From Somniosus microcephalus (Eukaryota): a DNA stretch of 64,000 nt. The notes beneath the pieces were generated by a model. It saw nothing but the letters and a program-made list of their open reading frames with translations, was not told the origin of the DNA and searched no databases. The stretch lies in the NCBI GenBank assembly GCA_052327205.1, contig CM126214.1:10044001-10108000 (forward strand), read 5' to 3'. Positions 19,921-54,190 of the stretch are shown piece after piece. A program made the translations under genes and the position numbers. The first letter of the stretch is position 1. Each line of letters begins with the position of its first letter.

Positions 19921-20046
19921 CTATAGGATAATGCAGGGTTTTTTCTCCTTGAAAGGATTCTCAGACGTCGGGACTCCAAGAATCAGCGGGTCGCTCCGGG
20001 CATGCTGCTCGCAGTAATTCATAAGGTCTACAGCAGCTTTGGATAC
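19921..20046 (-). CDS. GNG7: G protein subunit gamma 7, last coding exon ([41 protein letters not shown])
   Basis: Acceptor ttttcttgtaacag|GTA in phase 0. Contains the G-gamma DPLL/NPF motifs and a C-terminal CaaX (CIIL). The spliced product is 68 aa. [11 protein letters not shown] and KPCIIL favour GNG7 over its paralogue GNG12. Confidence 0.96.
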
Positions 20047-21094: not shown

Positions 21095-21794
21095 AAGCTT
21101 AGAAATTCGGTGGGCTGCGCCACCAGTTAGCACCCAAAGAAGGCACTTAGTGGGTTTAGCGCCACTGGCCACGCCTCCCGCGAAATTTAGAGGGGCACTA
21201 ATGGCGGCGTTAGCCGGTAGCGCTGCGCTGCCACCGATGAAGTCATCGATGTGCGCAGCGCCCCGCTACCGCCCCGATATTTGGTAGCGCCCCCCCCCGC
21301 TGTAACGCCGGTCGTAATTTGCGACCGGTTCAGGGGGGCCTACCTGCGGCAGTAGAGGCGCAAATTAAAGGAGGTGCGGGGCGGCCATCTTTGTTGTTGG
21401 CCGCCTGCCAGCACCTCTCTGCGCTTCTGTCCCCGGCCTCCTAACCCCACCCCCGCGTTGTGCCGGCTGTGTCCCAAGAGCCTGGCACTTCTCGGTGCCG
21501 GGCTCTTTTGCCGGCACTCGTGATCTCCGATCGCGCTGCAGCAGGCCCCTCCCCTTTAAGAAGGGGAGGAAGGCCTGCAGTACTGCAGCGCGCCGTGCCG
21601 CAGCGTGGCGCTGCGGCACGTTGCGCTGCGATTTTCAGTTGCAGCGCCCCAAGACGGATGCGGGGCGCCGCGCTTCCGTTTGGGACGCTCAAACTGAATA
21701 TCTGGCTGGCGCTCACGGCTCCTTCCGGGGCGGTACTTCCGGCGCCCAGGCGAGACTGGCGCCCCAAACAGGGCACCACCGAATTTCTAGGCCC
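21095..21794. mobile_element. PIF/Harbinger-like MITE, CpG-rich
   Basis: TIR core TAGAAATTCGGTGG (21100-21113) and CCACCGAATTTCTAGGCCC (21776-21794). Shares motifs such as TTAAAGGGGAGG-like and GCGCCCC with 1111-1989. Confidence 0.75.
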
Positions 21795-24925: not shown

Positions 24926-27900
24926 GGCAGAGATTTTCTTTACCGCGGCGGGCAACGTTGGTGGCGGCTTCCTACCCCGCTGCTGGCTCCATCCCGCTCT
25001 GGAAAATGATTTTACATTGATGGGGCTTGTTAAGCCCGCCCAGTGCTTTTGCTGGTCCAATTAGAGGAAGCGGGTCTGGTGACGTCATTCATGACTCATC
25101 ATCGGCCGGTTTCCTTAAAAGGACCATGGCCAACTTTCTTTTAACATTTGTGCTGTCAGTGTTCCACAGCATTGAAGTGCTGCAAACACTGACAATGACG
25201 GCATAGAGGTGCAGGACTGCACCCAGGTTCTCCCATGACTCCCTCCATATGACCTCCTCTTCCCATCCGATGGGCTGAAGACACCTCCCCAGGAGACCAA
25301 CACAGCCTGGTTGCACATTGCACAGGAAGGCACAAGCAGGGATGTCGTCAGAAGGACCTGGGTGCAGTGGCGCAAACCTTTCAATGATCTCAGTGGATCA
25401 TGAAACATTAGTACAAAGCCACACTCACCTTCATCTTGCTGTGCCTCTCATCACATCCCCATCACGCTGCCTTCCCTACCCTACCCCTGCACATCCTTAC
25501 CCACACCAACTTACCTTGCACCTCCACCTATCCTTCTCTCTCTATCTATATTATCACATCCCCATCTCACTAGCCACCCCCCATACTAGTGCAATCATAC
25601 CAACTAACAACACACAAGGGTAGCCACTTTGGCTTTTTATCCAATGTTCATGTAAAGTTTCTGTCAATGCGCTGTCAAACATTGAAACCTTTATTTTCAA
25701 CACTTTGCATTCTTGGGACAGATTTGTGCGCACCTTTGGAAGTGGCTTAGTGAGTTGCAGTGAATGAATGGTGAGACATAACAGTACCTCCCGCAATGGT
25801 GATGAGTGTGAAAGGAATGGCTTGGACATTGTAGGGATGCTTTATGGTGTTGGTGTAGGGTGCTGCCAACCTGGCGCATCTTGTGGCAGCCAAGGTGTAC
25901 AGCATCAAGAGAAGTAAATCTGGCCATGGTGAGGCCATCCCTGGCCTCCCGGGCAGCAATGTGCTCAGGTGCTGATGCCCTGTGTCCTGTGCAGCATCAG
26001 GTGATTGCGGAGAAGGTTGGTGTTGTTGTTGGTGCTGCTGATGTTGGGGCTGATCGTGCTCGGATTCTGAGCACCAAGGTGAGACAGTATAAAGGGTACC
26101 CATGTTGATGGAATAGATGGCAGGTGAAGTAGAGATAACAGAAGCATTGTCAATGGTGAGAGAGTTCCTCCAATGAGGTAAGAGTGAATGGAGAGTGCAA
26201 AGTGGAAAACCTGCTGGAAATCGACTTGAGAAACAGCTTTGTGGCTGAGGAAAGTGATGTCAGCTGGGAGCTTTTACTGTACGTTTGAAGCTGTCAAGTA
26301 ATCAGCTGCAGCAATGGCCACTGAACTCCCGCCTCAGGTTGACAGCCATGGTCCCCGAACAGCATGGTTCCCGTGGTCAAAGTTAAAAGTGAAAAGGTAA
26401 GTTTAAAAAGCCTGTGAATGATCTGTCAACTAGATGGTAAAGATGTTAATTGGGTCCCCCAATGCTGCCTGTCGGGTCTGCTCAGCACCGACAGACCCGA
26501 CATAGGGAAAGGTGTGTTGCGGCGGAAATTAGGGATAGCATAAGATCCGAGAGGACATATAAATTGGCCAGAAAATGCAGCAAACCAGAGGATTGGGAGT
26601 AGTTTAGGATTCAGCAAAGGAGGACAAAGGGATTAATTAAGAGGGGGAAAATAGAGTATGAGAGTAAGCTTTCAGGGAACATAAAAACTGACTGTAAAAG
26701 CTTCTATAGATATGTGAAGAGAAAAAGATTGGTGAAGTCAAGTGTAGATCCCTTGCAGCTAGAATCAGGGGAATTTATAAAAGGGGAACAAAGAAATGGC
26801 TGACCAATTAAATAGATACTTTGGTTCTGTCTTCACAAAGGAGGACACAAATAACCTCCCAGAGATGTCGGGGAACATAGGGTCTAATGAGAGGGAGGAA
26901 CTGAATGAAATCAGTATTTGTAGGGAAATGGTGTTAGGGAAATTGACGGGATTGAAGGCCGATAAATCCCCAGGGCCTGATAATCTACATGCTAGGGTAC
27001 TTAAGGAAGTGGCCCTAGAAATAGTAGATGCATTGCTGGTCATCTTCCAAAATTCTAGAGACTCTGGAACAGTTCCCATGGATTGGAGGGTAGCTAATGT
27101 AACCCCACTATTTAAAAAAGGTGGTAGAGAGAAAACGGGGACTTATAGACCGGTAAGCCTGACATCGGTAGTGGGGAAAATGTTAGAGTCCATTATAAAA
27201 GATGTAACAGCAGAGCACTTGGAAAACAGTGACAGGATCGGACAAAGTCAACATGGATTTACAAAAGGTAAATCGTGCTTGACTAATCTACTGGAATTTT
27301 TTCAGGATGTAACTGGTAGAATAGATAAGGGAGAACCAGTAGATGTGGTGTATTTGGACTTTCAGAAGGCTTTCGATAAGGTCCCGCATAAGAGATTAGC
27401 GTGCAAAGTTAAAGCACATGGGATTGGGGGTAAGGTACCGACTTGGACAGAGAACTGGTTGGCAGACAGGAAGCAAAGAGTTGGAATAAACGGGTCTTTT
27501 TCCGAGTGGCAGGCAGTGACTAGTGGGGTATCGCAGGTATCGGTGCTAGGACCCCAGCTATTCACAATATATATTAATGATCTAGACGAGGGAACTAGAT
27601 GTAATATCTCCAAGTTTGCAGATAACACAAAGCTGGGTGGTCATGTGTGCTGTGAGGAGGATGCAGAGAAACCCCAGTATGATTTGGACAGGTTGGGTGA
27701 TTGGGCAGATGCAGTATAATGTGGATAAATGCGAGGTTATCCACTTTGGTGGTAAAAACAGGAAGGCAGATTATCTGAACGGCAATAGATTGGGAAAAGG
27801 GGAAGTGCAACGAGACCTGGGTGTCCTTGTGCACCAGTCGCTGAAGGTAAGCATGCAGGTGCAGCAGGTGGTTAAGAAGGCAAATGGTATGTTGGCCTTC

Positions 27901-28582
27901 ATAGCAAGAGGATTCGTGTACAGGAGCAAGGATGTCTTGCTGCAGTTTTACAGGGCCTTGGTGAGATCACACCTTGAGTATTGTGTGCAGTTTTGGTCCC
28001 CTTATCTGAGGAAGGATATTCTTGCCATGGAGGGAGTGCAGCGAAGATTCACCAGACTGATACCTGGGATGGCAGGAATGACGTATGGAGAGAGATTGGG
28101 TCGATTAGGCTTATATTTGCTAGTGTTCAGAAGAATGAGAGGGGATCTCATTGAAACTTATAAAATTCTAACAGGACTAGACAGACTAGATGCAGGAAGG
28201 ATGTTCTCGATGGCGGGGGAGTCCAGAACCAGGGGGTCACAGTCTAAGGATAAGGGGTAAGCCATGTAGGACTGAGATGAGCAGAAATGTCATCACCCAG
28301 AGAGTGGTGAACCTGTGGAATTCTTTACCACAGAAGGCAGTTGAGGCCATTCATTAAATATATTCAAGAAGGCGTTAGATATATTTCTTAAGGCTAAAAG
28401 GATCAAGGGATATGGGGAGAAAGCAGGGACAGGGTACTGAATTTGGATGATCAGCCATGATCTCATTAAATGGCGGAGCAGGCTCGAGGGGCCGAATGGC
28501 CTACTCCTGCTCCTATCTTCTATGTTTCTATGAAACTAATTTTCCACCCAACCCGCCACTGATCCCCCAGAAAATTCCAGCC
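24926..28582 (+). mobile_element. Decayed Harbinger derivative with a Myb/SANT remnant, hosting a CR1 insertion
   Basis: 25200-25395 encodes frameshifted Myb-like motifs (PRFS, PSDG, RRTWVQWRKPFNDL) homologous to 37143-37382. Right end is AAAATTCCAGCC; the left end is degenerate. Confidence 0.65.
26525..28533 (+). mobile_element. 5'-truncated CR1 LINE (ORF2 reverse transcriptase, frameshifted)
   Basis: ORFs 26796-27719 and 27616-28260 contain KSPGPD, YRPVSLTS, YLDFQKAFDKVPH and KFADNTKL. Ends in a CTATGTTTCTATG tail. Confidence 0.95.
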
Positions 28583-30456
28583 AAAGTGTCTGTCTAGTTA
28601 CAATGCATTTTTTTGGCTGAACCTCAAACACTATTCTAAGAAGGATCCACTGCATTATTTTCAGATGTTGAGCACAGTGCAAAGGAAAATCAGATTTGAG
28701 AAAGAAAAAGTTTGAGGGTCATCATCATAACATTTTAGGCAGATATTTAGAAATGCTGGGCTGCTGCCCAGTTCCTCCTGGGTAGCAAACTAGTTAAATG
28801 TACCACAAAGAGTAGTAATGAGCCCAGAAGATCAAAAAGGTACCATTATCTGGTCCCTGGACCCAGTTAGTAAATCAATTTCAGCAAAGGTAGCAGTGTG
28901 TGTTGGGGGCAGCATTAAGACCCACCCTAGTGTCTCCAAGATAGGGAGGTGGTGGGTGGGGGGGGGTAGTATCAGCCAGGATTTCTGCTCCTGATTACCA
29001 ACCAATACCTCCTGCTGGCAGTGTGCGCCACTATTTGAGGGATTAGGTTTGGGGATCAAATCGGATGGCTATTAAATGGAACAGCAAAAGTTGACACTAT
29101 CTGATCAATCTCCCAATTGGCTGAATTACCAGACAGCCATCACTACAACATGGAATCGAACTTCAGCACCAGTTGCTATCTTAGAAAAAGTGATAAAAAT
29201 CAGAGGACAAGTTAGAGGTTGAGGTTTCAGAAATCAAAGAGAAAAATTATGTACATTGGGCTTGAAATGGGATTCCATAATTGTCGGATTTAAAAACATG
29301 TTTTTTCCCTTATTTTATCTGGATTTGAACGACAAACACTGCTGTTGACTTTGTCTCCCTACCCTTGGCTGGCAAGGGATCCCTGTAAAAGTTACTGGTT
29401 TGCAGTTTTCAAAATGGAATCTCTAAAGCACCTGTTAATATTCTAGGATTTCTCGATCATAAACCAGTAATCCTAATTATAAATGGATGCAATTATAGAA
29501 TGTGATCCCCAAAATACCAGAAGAAAAATCATAGATTCCCATATCATTAAAAAATGGAATTTGATTTGTTAATCACTTTAAACCAGTGGCTGTAGTCTTT
29601 GTGCGTTAACTTTGCCATTTACATATTAACACATGCAGAGAATACAGGTGAAACAAGGAATAATTTTTTTTTTCTCAAGTCCTGATCTGAAATTTGATCT
29701 AGTTTCACCCCAGCACCAAATTTTCACTGTTTTTGAAAGTTCCAAAATACATCCTGAAAAATTCCTGGAAAACTTTTTCAAAAATAAAACCTGAAACCAC
29801 GCATAATACAAGACTGGATTCAGTGCATAACAGGAAGGCTTGTAAAATATCAGTGTAGTCCAAACAAGATCAGCTGTTCGTTGCAGATTATAAACGCACC
29901 CGCTAGTACACCCATTTAATCCTCTGGCCCACTTAAAACAAGTTTCGACAATAAATCAGTAACATCCTGTATGTGTCAGTGATGTTTTGTGCTGCCGCTA
30001 TTTTCACCCCGTAAATCATATTTAATATTGTCCTGAAGTGAAAATGTTAGCTCATTGCGACCTCTAATAGTTGAGAACTACTTCACAGTAAACACAGCAC
30101 CAAGTCCCACCCACTCCAAACTCAGAGTTTGAAAACACACAGTTGACAATCACTTCAAGCCACTTTGATATTGATGATGGGGTGCCAGGAGAGTGGCATT
30201 AAGTGGAGTCCCACAACATTCAAGCATCAAACTCCACTTGTTATTATAGCAGCATGCAGCTGGCCCAGTCAGTGGTCCAAGAGTATGAGTTGCATGCTTT
30301 CCACTGCCTCCAACAGCCAGTCTTGAAATACAGGAAAAAAAGCATGTAGTATAGGAGGCATGTAGTTTGTCTATTTTATTATTGACTAGCTGAAGTGCCC
30401 AGCGGGGCCGAGGGATTTTTGAGGGCATGTTGTTGTTGGAAGCGAGAGAGCGGGCG

Positions 30457-33418
30457 GAAGAGAGAGAGCGACTGGGGGGGGAAGAGAGAGAGCGACTGGG
30501 GGGGGGAAGAGAGAGAGCGACTGGGGGGGGGGGAAGAGAGAGAGCGACTGGGGGGGAAGAGAGAGAGCGACTGGGGGGGGGAAGAGAGAGAGCGACTGGG
30601 GGGGAAGAGAGAGAGCGACTGGGGGGGGGAAGAGAGAGAGCGACTGGGGGGAAAGAGAGAGAGCGACTGGGGGGGGAAGAGAGAGAGCGGCTGGGGGGGG
30701 AAGAGAGAGAGCGGCTGGGGGGGAAGAGAGAGAGCGACTGGGGGGGAAGAGAGAGAGCGACTGGGGGGGAAGAGAGAGAGCGACTGGGGGGAAGAGAGAG
30801 AGCGACTGGGGGGGAAGAGAGAGAGCGACTGGGGGGAAGAGAGAGAGCGACTGGGGGGAAGAGAGAGAGCGACTGGGGGGAAGAGAGAGAGCGACTGGGG
30901 GGAAGAGAGAGAGCGACTGGGGGGAAGAGAGAGAGCGACTGGGGGGAAGAGAGAGAGCGACTGGGGGGAAGAGAGAGAGCGACTGGGGGGAAGAGAGAGA
31001 GCGACTGGGGGGAAGAGAGAGAGCGACTGGGGGGAAGAGAGAGAGCGACTGGGGGGAAGAGAGAGAGCGACTGGGGGGAAGAGAGAGAGCGACTGGGGGG
31101 AAGAGAGAGAGCGACTGGGGGGAAGAGAGAGAGCGACTGGGGGGAAGAGAGAGAGCGACTGGGGGAAGAGAGAGAGCGACTGGGGGGAAGAGAGAGAGCG
31201 ACTGGGGGGAAGAGAGAGAGCGACTGGGGGGAAGAGAGAGAGCGACTGGGGGGAAGAGAGAGAGCGACTGGGGGGAAGAGAGAGAGCGACTGGGGGGGAA
31301 GAGAGAGAGCGACTGGGGGGAAGAGAGAGAGCGACTGGGGGGAAGAGAGAGAGCGACTGGGGGGAAGAGAGAGAGCGACTGGGGGGAAGAGAGAGAGCGA
31401 CTGGGGGGAAGAGAGAGAGCGACTGGGGGGAAGAGAGAGAGCGACTGGGGGGAAGAGAGAGAGCGACTGGGGGGAAGAGAGAGAGCGACTGGGGGGAAGA
31501 GAGAGAGCGACTGGGGGGAAGAGAGAGAGCGACTGGGGGGAAGAGAGAGAGCGACTGGGGGGAAGAGAGAGAGCGACTGGGGGGAAGAGAGAGAGCGACT
31601 GGGGGGAAGAGAGAGAGCGACTGGGGGGAAGAGAGAGAGCGACTGGGGGGAAGAGAGAGAGCGACTGGGGGGAAGAGAGAGAGCGACTGGGGGAAGAGAG
31701 AGAGCGACTGGGGGGAAGAGAGAGAGCGACTGGGGGGAAGAGAGAGAGCGACTGGGGGGAAGAGAGAGAGCGACTGGGGGGAAGAGAGAGAGCGACTGGG
31801 GGGAAGAGAGAGAGCGACTGGGGGGAAGAGAGAGAGCGACTGGGGGGAAGAGAGAGAGCGACTGGGGGGAAGAGAGAGAGCGACTGGGGGGAAGAGAGAG
31901 AGCGACTGGGGGGAAGAGAGAGAGCGACTGGGGGGAAGAGAGAGAGCGACTGGGGGGAAGAGAGAGAGCGACTGGGGGGAAGAGAGAGAGCGACTGGGGG
32001 GAAGAGAGAGAGCGACTGGGGGGAAGAGAGAGAGCGACTGGGGGGAAGAGAGAGAGCGACTGGGGGAAGAGAGAGAGCGACTGGGGGGAAGAGAGAGAGC
32101 GACTGGGGGGAAGAGAGAGAGCGACTGGGGGGAAGAGAGAGAGCGACTGGGGGGAAGAGAGAGAGCGACTGGGGGGAAGAGAGAGAGCGACTGGGGGGAA
32201 GAGAGAGAGCGACTGGGGGGAAGAGAGAGAGCGACTGGGGGGAAGAGAGAGAGCGACTGGGGGGAAGAGAGAGAGCGACTGGGGGGAAGAGAGAGAGCGA
32301 CTGGGGGGAAGAGAGAGAGCGACTGGGGGGAAGAGAGAGAGCGACTGGGGGGAAGAGAGAGAGCGACTGGGGGGAAGAGAGAGAGCGACTGGGGGAAGAG
32401 AGAGAGCGACTGGGGGGAAGAGAGAGAGCGACTGGGGGGAAGAGAGAGAGCGACTGGGGGGAAGAGAGAGAGCGACTGGGGGGAAGAGAGAGAGCGACTG
32501 GGGGGAAGAGAGAGAGCGACTGGGGGGAAGAGAGAGAGCGACTGGGGGGAAGAGAGAGAGCGACTGGGGGGAAGAGAGAGAGCGACTGGGGGGAAGAGAG
32601 AGAGCGACTGGGGGGAAGAGAGAGAGCGACTGGGGGGAAGAGAGAGAGCGATGGAGAGAGAGCGACTGGGGGAAGAGAGAGAGCGACTGGGGGGAAGAGA
32701 GAGAGCGACTGGGGGGAAGAGAGAGAGCGACTGGGGGGAAGAGAGAGAGCGACTGGGGGGAAGAGAGAGAGCGACTGGGGGGAAGAGAGAGAGCGACTGG
32801 GGGGAAGAGAGAGAGCGACTGGGGGGAAGAGAGAGAGCGACTGGGGGGAAGAGAGAGAGCGACTGGGGGGAAGAGAGAGAGCGACTGGGGGAAGAGAGAG
32901 AGCGACTGGGGGGAAGAGAGAGAGCGACTGGGGGGAAGAGAGAGAGCGACTGGGGGGAAGAGAGAGAGCGACTGGGGGGAAGAGAGAGAGCGACTGGGGG
33001 GAAGAGAGAGAGCGACTGGGGGGAAGAGAGAGCGACTGGGGGGAAGAGAGAGAGCGACTGGGGGGAAGAGAGAGAGCGACTGGGGGGAAGAGAGAGAGCG
33101 ACTGGGGGGAAGAGAGAGAGCGACTGGGGGGAAGAGAGAGAGCGACTGGGGGGAAGAGAGAGAGCGACTGGGGGGAAGAGAGAGAGCGACTGGGGGGAAG
33201 AGAGAGAGCGACTGGGGGGAAGAGAGAGAGCGACTGGGGGGAAGAGAGAGAGCGACTGGGGGGAAGAGAGAGAGCGACTGGGGGGAAGAGAGAGAGCGAC
33301 TGGGGGGAAGAGAGAGAGCGACTGGGGGGAAGAGAGAGAGCGACTGGGGGAAGAGAGAGAGCGACTGGGGGGAAGAGAGAGAGCGACTGGGGGGAAGAGA
33401 GAGAGCGACTGGGGGGAA
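30457..33418. repeat. 22-bp minisatellite (GAAGAGAGAGAGCGACTGGGGG)n, roughly 130-135 copies
   Basis: Directly visible. Units vary mostly in G-run length; longer G runs cluster at the left end. Confidence 0.98.
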
Positions 33419-33440
33419 AGGGGAGGGGAGGGGGGAAAGG

Positions 33441-33614
33441 NNNNNNNNNNNNNNNNNNNNNNNNNNNNNNNNNNNNNNNNNNNNNNNNNNNNNNNNNNNN
33501 NNNNNNNNNNNNNNNNNNNNNNNNNNNNNNNNNNNNNNNNNNNNNNNNNNNNNNNNNNNNNNNNNNNNNNNNNNNNNNNNNNNNNNNNNNNNNNNNNNNN
33601 NNNNNNNNNNNNNN
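33441..33614. other. Assembly gap (174 N)
   Basis: Run of n characters. Confidence 1.
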
Positions 33615-33689
33615 GAGGGGGGGAGAGGGAGAGGAGGGGAGGGGGAAGGAGGGGGGGAGAAAGGGAGGGGGGAGCCAGCAGTCCCTCTC

Positions 33690-34620
33690 CCCTCTGCCGG
33701 TGAAGGCTCCGCTGAGCTCCGTGCCGCCCCACGCACTGACATGCCGAGCGCAGCGCCCCAGTCAGCCCGAGCCCCGCCCTCTCGAGGCTGGGCCTGAGGC
33801 GGCTTGAGACGGCCGATTGCGGCTGGCCGGGCCCGGTTGCCTTAGTAACCCTCCTCCCCTCTCCGCCTCCCGATCTCCGGGACTGGGCCTGAGCGGCTTG
33901 CGACGGCCGATTGCGACTGGCGAGCCCGGTTGCCAGGGTAACCCTCTCTGCTCCCCCTCCCGAGCCCCGCCCCCCCTAACCTGCTCGCTTCCCTCTGGCC
34001 ACGCTCTGTGTGGAGGTGCGCGTGCGCTGTGCAGCGCGAGCGCGAATGAAGCGCGAGGAGCTTGCAGTGAGCCCAGCCAGCCTTTACCAAGATGGCTGGC
34101 CGCTGGTTCGGAATCGGGCCCAGCCGGTGGGGGGGTGGGAGGAGCTTGCCACAAAACAATTGCCTAGGGTCCAGCATGGCTGGCAACAGACGCCCAGGCT
34201 TCGGGGCCTACCTGCAAAAACGGGCAAAGGTAGGAAAGTTAATGAGATTAGAGAAAAAGATTTAGAAAGTAATTAACTTAAGAAAACAATGTGTGTTTTA
34301 AAAGCAACTTTTTTTTTTGAAGACGCAGAAAGCGGGAAAAAGAAATGAAATGAAAAGTTTGGAATCAAGATGGCGGCGACTCACCTCGGTTCAGAACGAT
34401 AAGGCCCGCCCACACACGCACCGATTGGTCGACCGCCAGGTCACCGAAGCGTAGGATTGGTCAATCGTCCCGTCACTCGACTCTAGGAGGGCCCGCCCGC
34501 ACGCGCCAGGAACCCGCCCCCGCCACGCAGCGATTGGTCGACCGTCGGGTTGCTCGACCGTACGATTGGTTGACCTCGACGTCACTCAATGCTAATGAGC
34601 AGATAATGAGCGGAATTTTG
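33690..34620. promoter_or_regulatory. CpG island inside the Helitron-like element
   Basis: Dense CpG. Contains RFX X-box matches (33836-33849, 33929-33942), an NRF1-like TGCGCGTGCGC (34017-34027), YY1 motifs (34088-34096, 34366-34377) and GC boxes. Confidence 0.75.
34405..34590 (-). promoter_or_regulatory. TATA-less Pol II promoter-like module: 4 CCAAT boxes, GC boxes, CRE-like site
   Basis: ATTGG at 34424, 34456, 34533 and 34565; CCCGCCC boxes; GACGTCA at 34578-34584. Lies just upstream of a minus-strand donor GAG|GTGAGT (34384). Confidence 0.7.
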
Positions 34621-35146
34621 AACGTTTTTTGGATACCGCGGGCACAATTTTTGTCTCACCGAAATGTAAATATGCTTACGACCGTTCTGGAATCGTAAGC
34701 TTTCTTTTGATGTAACACACGTGTAGGTACGCTCTATAACTTTTGATTGTATAGCCGGACAGAGAGACAGAAAGACAGACAGAGCGACATACCGTTTTAT
34801 ATATATATAATACAATATAATAATAATGTGCTGCTGCTGGGGTGGGTGAAGGGAATCTCTTTCAACGTAATAATTTTATACATCTCTACTTGGCAGTAGC
34901 CAGCCCAATTTTGTACACGCAAGAACAGTCAAATGTAATATTTGCCAAGTCCATCTCTAACTGGCTGCCTTTCATTTCACGAGATATCATAATTCCAGTT
35001 CTCGGTTAACTGTGAATACACATGTCTACTCACATGCACTTCCAGCAGGGGACACTAGATAACAATCAGGAGCAGTAACTCCATCGTCCCCTCCCTAATC
35101 TAGGAGTGCTGAAGCCAATTGGACCATCCCTACTGCTTCCCCAGTT

Positions 35147-36850
35147 GAACATAAGAAATAGGAGCAGGAGTCGGCCATTTGGCCCCTTGAGCCTGCTCCG
35201 CCATTCAATAAGATCATGGCTGATCTTCTACCTCAACTCCACTTTCCTGCACTATCCCCATATCCCTTAATATCCAAAAATCTATCAATCTCTGTCTTGA
35301 ATATGCTCAACGACTGAGCCTCCACAGCCCTCTGGGGCAGAGAATTCCAAAGATTCACCACCCTCAGTGAAGAAATTCCTCCTCATCTCAGTCCCAAATG
35401 GCCGACACCTTATCGTGTGACTGTGATCCCTGGTTCTAGACTCTCCAGCCAGGGGAAACATCCTCCCTGCATCTACCCAGTCAAGCCCTGTAAGAATTTT
35501 GTATGTTTCAATGAGATCACCTCTCATTCTTCTAAACTCTAGAGAATATAGGCCCAGTCTACTCAATCTCTCCTCATAGGACAATTCCCCCATCCCAGGA
35601 ACCAGTCTGGTGAACCTTCGTTGCACTCCCTCTATGGCAGGTATATCCTTCCTTAGGTAAGGAGACCAAAACTGTACACAATACTCGAGGTGTGGTCTCA
35701 ACAGGGCCCTGTATAATTGCAGTAAGGCGTCTTTACTCTAATACTCAAATCCTCTTGTAATAAAGGCCAACATACCATTTGCTTTCCTAGTCGCTTGCTG
35801 TACCTGCATGTTAACTTTATGATTCGTGTACAAGGACACCCAAGTCCCTCTGAACACCAACATTTCCCAATCGCTCACCAGTTAAAAAAAACTCTGCTTT
35901 TCTATTTTTCCTACCGAAGTGGATAACTTCACATTTCTCCACATTATATTCCATTTGCCATGTTCTTGCCCACTCACTTAGCCTGTCTATATCCCCTTGA
36001 AGCCTCCTTGCATCCTCCTCACAACTTACATTCCCACCCAGCTTTGTATCATCAGCAAACTTGGATATATTACATTTGGTCCCCTCATCCAAATCATTGA
36101 TACAGACTATGAATAGCTGAGGCCCAAGCACTGATCCTTGCGGAATCCTACTAATTACAACCTGTCAACCAGAAAATGACCTGTTTATTCCTACTCTCTG
36201 TTTTCTGTCCGTTAACCAATCCTCAATCCATGCTAGTATTTAACCCCCAATCCCATGAGCCCCAATTTTGTTTAATAACCTCTTGTGTGGCACCTTATCG
36301 AATGTCTTCTGAAAATCCAAATACACCACATCCACTGGTTCCCCCATATCTATTCTGCTAGTTACAACCTCAAAAAACTCTTACAGATTCGTCAAACACG
36401 ATTTCCCTTTCATAAATCCGTGTTGACTCTGCCCAATCCTATTATTATTTTCTAATGCCCTGTTACCACGTCTTTAATAATAGATTCTCGCATTTTCCCT
36501 ATTACTGATGTCAGGCTAACTGGTCTGTAATTACCCGTTTTCTCTCTCCCTCCTTTCTTAAATAGTGGGGTTACATTTTCTACCTTCCAATCCACGGGAA
36601 CCATTCTAGAATCTATGGAATTTTGGAAAATTACAACCAATGCATCCACTATCTCTATAGTCACCTCTTTCAAAACCTTAGGATGTAGGCCATCAAGTCC
36701 AGGGGATTTATCGGCTTTCAGTCCCATTAATTTCTCCAGTACTATTTTTTTACTAATACTAATTTCTTTCAGTTCTTCATTCTCGCTAGACCTTTGGTTC
36801 TCCACTATTTCCGGGAAGTTTTTTGCATCTTCTTCCGTGAAGACAGACAC
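35147..36850 (-). mobile_element. CR1 LINE, 3' portion
   Basis: RT ORF fragments 35285-35701, 35817-36131 (KFADDTKL) and 36452-36850. Tail AACATAAGAAATAGGAGCAGG. Confidence 0.95.
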
Positions 36851-52563: not shown

Positions 52564-52933
52564 GGGGGCCAATTTTCACTTCTGGGCGGCTGACTGGCGG
52601 AGCGCGTCAGCCACCTGCTCGTCAAGTGAGCAAGGAGGCCCAAGGCATTTTGAGCTCGGGCCTCATTTAAATCTCACCAACGTGCTGTACGCTCTGAATG
52701 GGCATCCTACTGCAGCTTGCTGGCTCTGGACTAGTGCAATATCGGGCAGCTCAACACCGCGCCAGTCCCCGCAGGTAGATCTGGGCGAAGTGGAGGTGCC
52801 AAACCAGTGAGCCACAGCATTTTGTGGGACTAGGAGAAGCACTGCGGTTCTTCCAGGCTCCATAAATATATAACCCAGAAACATTTGTGTGCATGGTGCA
52901 CATTCCGCCCATATGTCCCTGAAAATTGCAATC
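52564..52933. mobile_element. Harbinger-like MITE remnant
   Basis: Ends GGGGGCCAATTTTCA and TGAAAATTGCAATC form a degenerate TIR pair. Confidence 0.5.
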
Positions 52934-52964
52934 AGAGTCTTAACTGTTGTAGGAACCTAATTTG

Positions 52965-54190
52965 CATAAGGAGGGTAGATGAGGGTAGTGTGTTTGATGT
53001 AGTGTATATGGACTTTAGCAAGGCTTTTGATAAAGTTCCACGTGGCAGATTGGTCACGAAGTTAAAAGCCCATGGGATCCAGGGCAAAGTGTCAAGTTGG
53101 ATTCAAAACTGTCTCGGAGGCAGGAAGCAGAGGATAATGGTTGATGGGTTTTTTTGTGACTGGAAGGCTATTTCCAGTGGGGTTCCGCAGGGCTCAGTAC
53201 TAGGTCCCTTGCTTTTTTTGGTATATATTAATGATCTAGACTTAAATATAGGGGGTATGATTAAGAAGTTTGCAGATGATACTAAAATCAGCTGTGTGGT
53301 TGATACTGAAGGAGGAAGCTGTAGACTGCAGGAAGATATCAATAAATTGGTCAGGTGGGCAGAACAGTGGCAAATGGAATTCAATCCGGAGAAGTGTGAG
53401 GTAATGCATTTGGGGAGGGCTAACAAGGAAAGGGAATACACATTAAATGGTAGGACACTGAGTAGTGTAGAGGAACAAAGGGACCTTGGAGTGCATGTCC
53501 ACAGATCCCTGAAGGTAGCAGGCCCAGTCGATAAGGTGATTAAGAAGGCATACGGAATGCTTGCCTTTATTAGTCGTGGCATAGAATACAAGAGCAGGGG
53601 GGGGGGTTATGCTTCAACTGTATAAAACACTAGTTAGGCCTCAGCTAGAGCACTGCGTGCAGTTCTGGTCACCACATTACAGGAAAGATGTGATTGCACT
53701 GGAGAGGGTGCAGAGGAGATTTACAAGGATGTTGCTGGGAGTAGAGAATCTTAGTTACGAGGAAAGACTGGATAGGCTGGGTTTGTTTTCCTTGGAACTG
53801 AGGAGGCTGAAGGGAGACCTTAGAGGTGTATAAAATTATGAGGGGCCTAGATAAAGTGGATAGAAAGGACCTATTTCCCTTAGCAGAGGGGTCAAAAACT
53901 AGGGGGCATAGATTTAAAGTAATTGGTGGAAGGTTTAGAGGGAATTTGAAGGGAAATTTCTTCACCCAGAAGGTTGTGGGGGTCTGGAACTCACTGCCTG
54001 AAAGGGTGGTAGAGGCAGGAACCCTAACCACATTTAAAAAGTACTTGAATGTGCACTTGGGATGCTGTAACCTGCAGGGCTACGGACCAAGAGCTGGGAA
54101 GTGGGATTAGGCTGGATAGCTCTTGTTGGCCGGCGCGGACACGATGGGCCGAAATGCCCTCCTTCCGTGCTGTAACTTTCTATGATTCTA
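52965..54190 (+). mobile_element. 5'-truncated CR1 LINE
   Basis: YMDFSKAFDKVP, GVPQGSVLGP and KFADDTK motifs, frameshifts, and a TTCTATGATTCTAT tail. Confidence 0.95.

Follow-up and report, generated by a model that had tools for sequence, protein, structure and literature searches.

The two exons from which a chimeric GNG7 isoform had been predicted in Somniosus microcephalus lie within an intronic element that, judged by its termini, its target site and its autonomous relatives, is a non-autonomous canonical Helitron, and both would be parts of its 5' region. We consider it quite probable that this sense-oriented element is a passive passenger over which GNG7 splices and that the predicted exons give rise to no meaningful GNG7 isoform. 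The copy is best read as a commonplace Helitron within an intron, whose potential to trap exons is of a kind already known from HelibatN3 of bats. As it stands, the result is a transposon annotation. It brings to light a Helitron family of fairly young age in one cartilaginous fish, where RepHel matches number at least 150 and non-autonomous copies with the promoter run into the hundreds.

Host gene and anatomy of the intronic element

The window (the whole analyzed stretch of 64,000 nucleotides) contains both coding exons of the host gene on the minus strand. The last one (19921..20046) comprises 41 codons plus stop, with the 3' UTR running on to lower coordinates; it matches PF00631, and its best protein match is gamma-7 of a skate with 95%. 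The normal first coding exon (43293..43413) has its ATG at 43373, 27 codons and a phase-0 donor that agrees with the donor consensus at eight of nine positions. Spliced together they yield the usual 68 amino acids. From this G-gamma domain nearest to gamma-7 and the two coding exons with a phase-0 junction, the host gene is GNG7, as the earlier note had named it; a search of solved structures with G-gamma returned mostly gamma-2 and gave no help in naming the paralogue. A further G-gamma last-exon match with one internal TAG was seen at G000:C9:65227998-65228126 and is possibly a pseudogene. The predicted exons are situated within the 23-kb intron that separates the two coding exons. This intron also contains a broken Myb/SANT-like gene (37023-38965, plus strand; PF13873, E 6.6e-10), likely part of a Harbinger-type transposon. 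Two GC-rich segments with Harbinger-like terminal motifs (21100-21793, minus strand, and near 42446, plus strand) are likely miniature elements. The segments 26524-28526, 35147-36847 and 52834-54190 are presumably CR1-like LINE fragments, a label taken from their reading frames; the part 27143-27262 served as empty site for the Helitron copy L003.

The Helitron itself occupies 30386..34810 of the minus strand (approximately 4.4 kb, of which 3 kb are a 22-bp minisatellite), is in sense with GNG7 and shares its boundaries, 34810 and 30386, with 19 sister loci. Its 5' terminus (34790..34810, minus strand) is preceded by A and starts with TT, whereas the family starts with TC, which was found in all 16 readable junctions among 20 copies. 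The base before this TC is A in 12 and C in two of the 16, and the other two sit head-to-tail after another copy. The 3' terminus (30386..30423, minus strand) consists of a GC-rich hairpin (folding energy near -4 kcal/mol for the window copy as for copy L004), followed by CTAG and by a T outside. In the 15 of 20 copies whose 3' end lies inside the locus, CTAG is found in 12 and the following T in all 15; the window copy has CTAG. Two of 13 flank pairs gave clean empty sites, both in paralogous repeats (97.5% and 87.6% over 120 nt), with insertion between A and T and no duplication; the remaining 11 pairs had no usable empty site. Such ends, hairpin and A/T insertion marks are those described for canonical Helitrons in the accessible text of PMC4778049. 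The designation "element-borne" in the earlier note is correct and can now be made precise.

Following the 5' terminus on the minus strand, a promoter-like stretch (34400..34590) is found whose homologue stands upstream of RepHel ORFs. Its motifs we take to be CCAAT boxes (34569, 34537, 34460 and 34428), GGGCGG boxes (34519, 34498 and 34411) and a CRE-like site (34584). This stretch cannot be ascribed to chance since four CCAAT in 235 bp exceed the count in all 10,000 of 10,000 base shuffles. Next come the predicted non-coding exon 1 (34385..34420, minus strand), with a tentative 5' end and a donor GAG/GTGAGT that recurs in two RepHel-bearing copies that were viewed, and a short intron-like stretch (34212..34384, minus strand) that ends in a polypyrimidine tract plus CAG, the latter followed by donor-like GTAGGC (seven of nine positions). 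Predicted exon 2 (34088..34211, minus strand; 124 nt) contains an ATG at 34177, a C-tract of variable length and the weak donor TTG/GTAAAG. All these exon borders and splice signals lie where the earlier note had placed them. Further on, a duplicated unit of approximately 90 bp (33760..33990, minus strand) carries two motifs, at 33942 and 33849, that we presume to be X-box-like, and the minisatellite (30452..33418, minus strand) counts 134 units, every one of which closes with a pyrimidine run plus CAG on the minus strand. Just behind the element end AATAAA (30375..30380, minus strand) is a candidate poly(A) signal.

The Helitron family and the origin of its promoter

In the genome of 6.4 Gb a query with 33700-34800 gave about 40 long matches with 88-94% identity (40 of 7,679 candidates scored). 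The exact 34-nt 5' end occurs in at least 146 copies genome-wide and the exact 28-nt context of the exon-2 ATG, which is common to several subfamilies, in at least 845 (reversed control 0). Many of the RepHel matches in this genome lie in open frames of more than 1,000 codons, and together these matches indicate that Helitrons have expanded here on a large scale and fairly recently.

The 5' part of the element was matched in seven of nine regions fetched around RepHel matches, with no match in the two regions C1 and C4; four of the matching regions were examined by eye. In C7 the order of terminus, four CCAAT and first donor is preserved with 84.8% identity over 441 nt, upstream of an ORF with Helitron_like_N and PIF1. 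After the donor a long pyrimidine-rich stretch follows there and then an acceptor immediately before the RepHel ATG, and the 3' terminus of this copy equals that of the element (92% over 66 nt). Pfam recognizes Helitron_like_N and PIF1 in the RepHel ORFs of both C7 and C10. The same first donor is present in C5b (74%), a different donor in C10, and in C11 the match is limited to the first 206 nt; C10, an autonomous copy, also has the second-donor motif in its 5' region. Hence RepHel-coding relatives with shared termini exist in this genome. Because autonomous copies have the same promoter and first donor ahead of their RepHel genes (85%), both likely belong to the transposon itself and serve its RepHel mRNA, which we infer to be spliced from the first donor to the acceptor at the RepHel ATG.

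The family of the window copy is without a RepHel gene. Immediately ahead of its 3' hairpin this non-autonomous family has bases that look like the beginning of RepHel, a possible sign of an internal deletion. Judging by its termini and by copies lying head to tail (L016, L017), the element would likely have been moved in trans by RepHel through rolling-circle transposition. Head-to-tail Helitrons were observed at L016, L017, L026-L027 and L043-L044, and some non-autonomous copies stand directly behind RepHel-coding ones. A sister subfamily (L045, L046, L055, L060, L068 and L070) has kept acceptor and ATG, has no weak donor and runs on into a second CCAAT/GC stretch with another donor-like site.

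Seven of 30 copies (L050, L053, L057, L058, L059, L063 and L064) carry an insertion at the same spot of the short intron of the element (equivalent to approximately 34290). Six of these have Harbinger-like GGCC/GGGC ends followed by ATA, likely a 3-bp duplication. The insertions differ internally and thus are likely the result of several events, with L057 and L063 being alike; the window copy differs at the equivalent site and has no insertion. The target of Harbinger3_DR, given as AAACACCWGGTCTTT in the accessible part of PMC3016246, is loosely like this insertion site.

The predicted isoform and the splicing of GNG7

The arithmetic of the predicted chimera is correct: from the ATG at 34177 exactly 90 nt (30 codons) lead to TTG/GTAAAG, the acceptor at 20046 is in phase 0 and the joined frame runs over 71 amino acids to the stop, whereas skipping of exon 2 leaves an ORF of 33 amino acids from an internal Met. 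For the phase we counted 50 copies: 20 were the top-scoring matches and 30 were the first to be met with the pattern along one chromosome. The second donor is present in 43 of them, the other seven belonging to subfamilies without such a donor. Between ATG and donor these 43 copies have 67-117 nt, and phases 0, 1 and 2 occur in 18, 16 and nine copies, respectively; the commonest distance is 100 nt (phase 1, 12 copies). The C-tract explains most of the length variation, and the donor occurs in all three phases because this tract slips; in the proposed mechanism it would set the phase of exon 2 copy by copy. The in-frame fit to GNG7 is therefore likely chance, a reservation that the earlier note had already made for the phase match.

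Compared among paralogous copies within one genome, start codon and frame are not kept. In all four diverged sister elements (69-72% identity) the ATG of exon 2 is AGG. The first donor is retained in the three diverged sisters that cover it. All four diverged sisters still have a pyrimidine tract, its AG displaced 4 nt further on, so an acceptor near 34211 may be real. "Exon 2" is likely intron sequence of the element, with an ATG at this place in one subfamily. Measured by matches to the 9-nt donor consensus, the first donor is strong (eight of nine positions) but the second is not (five of nine). The 14,041 nt from the second donor to the GNG7 acceptor contain 133 sites with a pyrimidine run and AG, almost all of which belong to the minisatellite. 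They also contain five AATAAA, and one of these stands directly behind the element; the minisatellite sites may be poor acceptors, wanting a branch point. The exon-2 frame matched no Pfam family, and 40 of its residues compared with proteins of 71-2000 amino acids returned no candidate, which is weak evidence. Comparison of the last exon with proteins of 22-72 amino acids gave 23 matches, and the element peptide was absent from the seven examined.

Also the CpG decay of the window copy was compared with that of its sisters. By transition it has lost 11 of 97 CpG of the family majority, four of 43 in the promoter. In the 19 sisters, which were picked by their likeness to the window copy, CpG loss amounts to 12.7 +/- 3.4% overall and 13.0 +/- 5.3% in the promoter, with 1.3% change at other sites. 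In CpG loss the window copy falls slightly short of their mean, and at other sites it changes more than they do on average (2.2%), but it stays within the range and does not look like a protected island. This decay, a germline average over time that is silent on any one somatic tissue, suggests methylation at least in the germline.

Four runs were used as transcript data, with their RNA nature being a guess since none is recorded as RNA. In all four a contig at the GNG7 acceptor 20046 continues into the normal upstream exon (43293 > 20046), in agreement with a pre-mRNA that would be spliced across the element. At this acceptor the normal join alone and no chimeric join was found among the pieces listed, a comparison of little power that covers all pieces and all loose ends but one. 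The run X22 has zero differences from the window over 368 nt and is likely from the same species, with a depth of 3.7 at the GNG7 junction; the remaining runs deviate from it by about 3% and may lack the insertion. Thus the junction check that had been proposed yielded the normal join in four of four runs, of which a single shallow one apparently represents this species. Such contigs show presence and not absence, as rare variants are dropped by assembly and filters, and element and last exon were compared as separate stretches with the minisatellite between them.

On 34030-34490, at 88% likeness, X22 gave 68 contigs (19 of them at 99% or more, not assignable to one copy), X2 one, and X1 and X4 none. 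Members of the Helitron family may thus be transcribed, and this counts against a purely passive passenger, as does the fact that the window copy retains the four CCAAT, both donors, the acceptor between them and the ATG. Among the pieces listed for this stretch no joint was found in the four runs, and none of the seven loose ends listed falls at 34385, 34211 or 34088. The cover in X22 is mostly at 34206-34490; that none lies at 34126-34189 around the ATG is no finding, for filters drop contigs.

These contigs would fit with a low-level leak of the promoter that produces non-coding or short-ORF RNAs, either with exon 1 joined straight to the last exon of GNG7 (the 33-aa ORF) or ending at the AATAAA behind the element (30380). 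The first donor is near consensus and ancestral and would look for a downstream acceptor because its natural RepHel acceptor is missing. However, the loss of CpG hints at methylation, in the germline at any rate, and the X22 contigs cannot be assigned to the window copy, so that we regard such a leak as rather unlikely.

Very unlikely is the isoform that had been predicted, in which the element promoter would drive exon 1, exon 2 and the last exon of GNG7 at a meaningful level and a prenylated protein of 71 amino acids without the N-terminal helix would result. In its favor, the copy has every signal required, in the right frame. Translation would stop within the last exon, and an RNA with this arrangement escapes nonsense-mediated decay. 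According to the accessible text of PMC4778049, HelibatN3 behaves likewise in cultured cells, and three bat transcripts have their start sites from it. On the other hand the phase differs among copies, diverged sisters are without the ATG, the weak donor is 14 kb away from its acceptor with 133 pyrimidine-run-AG sites and five AATAAA between, the CpG decay is as in sisters and only the normal join was seen. The chimeric isoform is not supported by these observations, nor is it refuted. The helix that pairs with G-beta lies in the N-terminal part of G-gamma, and loss of 27 of 68 residues removes it. Going by this established structure, the predicted product would likely not assemble with G-beta; an N-terminally replaced G-gamma would be unusual and, since it would likely not pair, a real signaling effect is doubtful. 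Assuming that approximately one third of the genome is intronic, half of the copies are in sense and about one third are phase-matched, one arrives at some tens of genes with an equivalent isoform on paper. That the family of at least 800 copies might trap exons throughout the genome in each of the three phases, by means of the promoter of its own transposase and a mini-exon that shuffles the frame, and at GNG7 yield a prenylated G-gamma without helix, has in our estimation a very low probability.

Highly improbable is also the use of the CAG/GTAGG site from the GNG7 pre-mRNA, either as a traceless recursive splice point or as a poison cassette exon. A donor-like hexamer directly follows the acceptor and, joined to the GNG7 exon end, agrees at seven of nine positions, which is above the second donor; a cassette would have its stop at codon 16, 76 nt before the exon end. 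Yet the AG/GT overlap is absent from diverged sisters. Finally, a captured host-gene fragment like NUBPL in HelibatN3 is extremely improbable as origin of promoter and exons: promoter capture is common in bat Helitrons (PMC4224331, accessible part), but the stretch begins with the 5' terminus itself, autonomous copies have it ahead of RepHel, and the exon-2 frame matches no Pfam family. The layout with CCAAT/GC boxes, a short first exon and a donor followed by what we assume to be a YY1-like motif presumably resembles a housekeeping promoter, and an ancient host capture that was later adopted by the transposon is conceivable.

Comparison with known Helitrons and transposon-derived promoters

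In the accessible literature on Helitrons of sharks and Chondrichthyes (including the accessible parts of PMC10468316 and PMC6817897) no description of the family was found, and in that on GNG7 and transposon promoters none of the isoform; subscription papers, supplements and repeat libraries were outside the scope of both searches. Literature searches on N-terminal deletions of G-gamma and on the native RepHel promoter returned nothing usable.

Transposon-derived alternative promoters of fish (PMC9341505) are similar in that an intragenic transposon offers an alternative start; they rest on chromatin and RNA data, whereas the present case is predicted from sequence. Like Heli2Xen, Helitron-N2_XT and Helitron-N1_DR (PMC12001565) the element consists mostly of a tandem array that varies between copies. 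It differs from them in its 22-bp unit, pyrimidine-rich on one strand, and is likened to them by description and not by sequence.

With Helraiser/Helibat1 (canonical, Helitron1-type; PMC4778049) the family has in common the 5'-TC and CTAG-3' ends, the hairpin, which leaves about a dozen bases to the 3' end, and, in its autonomous relatives, HUH Rep plus PIF1 helicase. In contrast, the window copy is non-coding, starts with TT, has a hairpin altered by two changes and contains a minisatellite of 3 kb.

The closest parallel is HelibatN3 of vesper bats (PMC4778049, PMC4224331), likewise non-autonomous, with about a thousand copies and with promoter, short exon, few codons and splice donor. Helitrons give bat transcripts promoters, splice sites and start codons (PMC4224331), and HelibatN3 traps host exons in cultured cells and is where three bat transcripts start (PMC4778049). 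By its sequence signals the window element has promoter and splice donor in sense and upstream of a host acceptor too, and from this intronic position it could in principle splice into the next host exon; such trapping is demonstrated for HelibatN3 and predicted here. Unlike HelibatN3, where the promoter was captured from a host gene (NUBPL), the window element has a promoter and a first donor whose counterparts are found in the 5' region of copies that code for RepHel. If this promoter were active at host loci, the family would represent a second vertebrate case of Helitron exon trapping, with its own promoter instead of a captured one.
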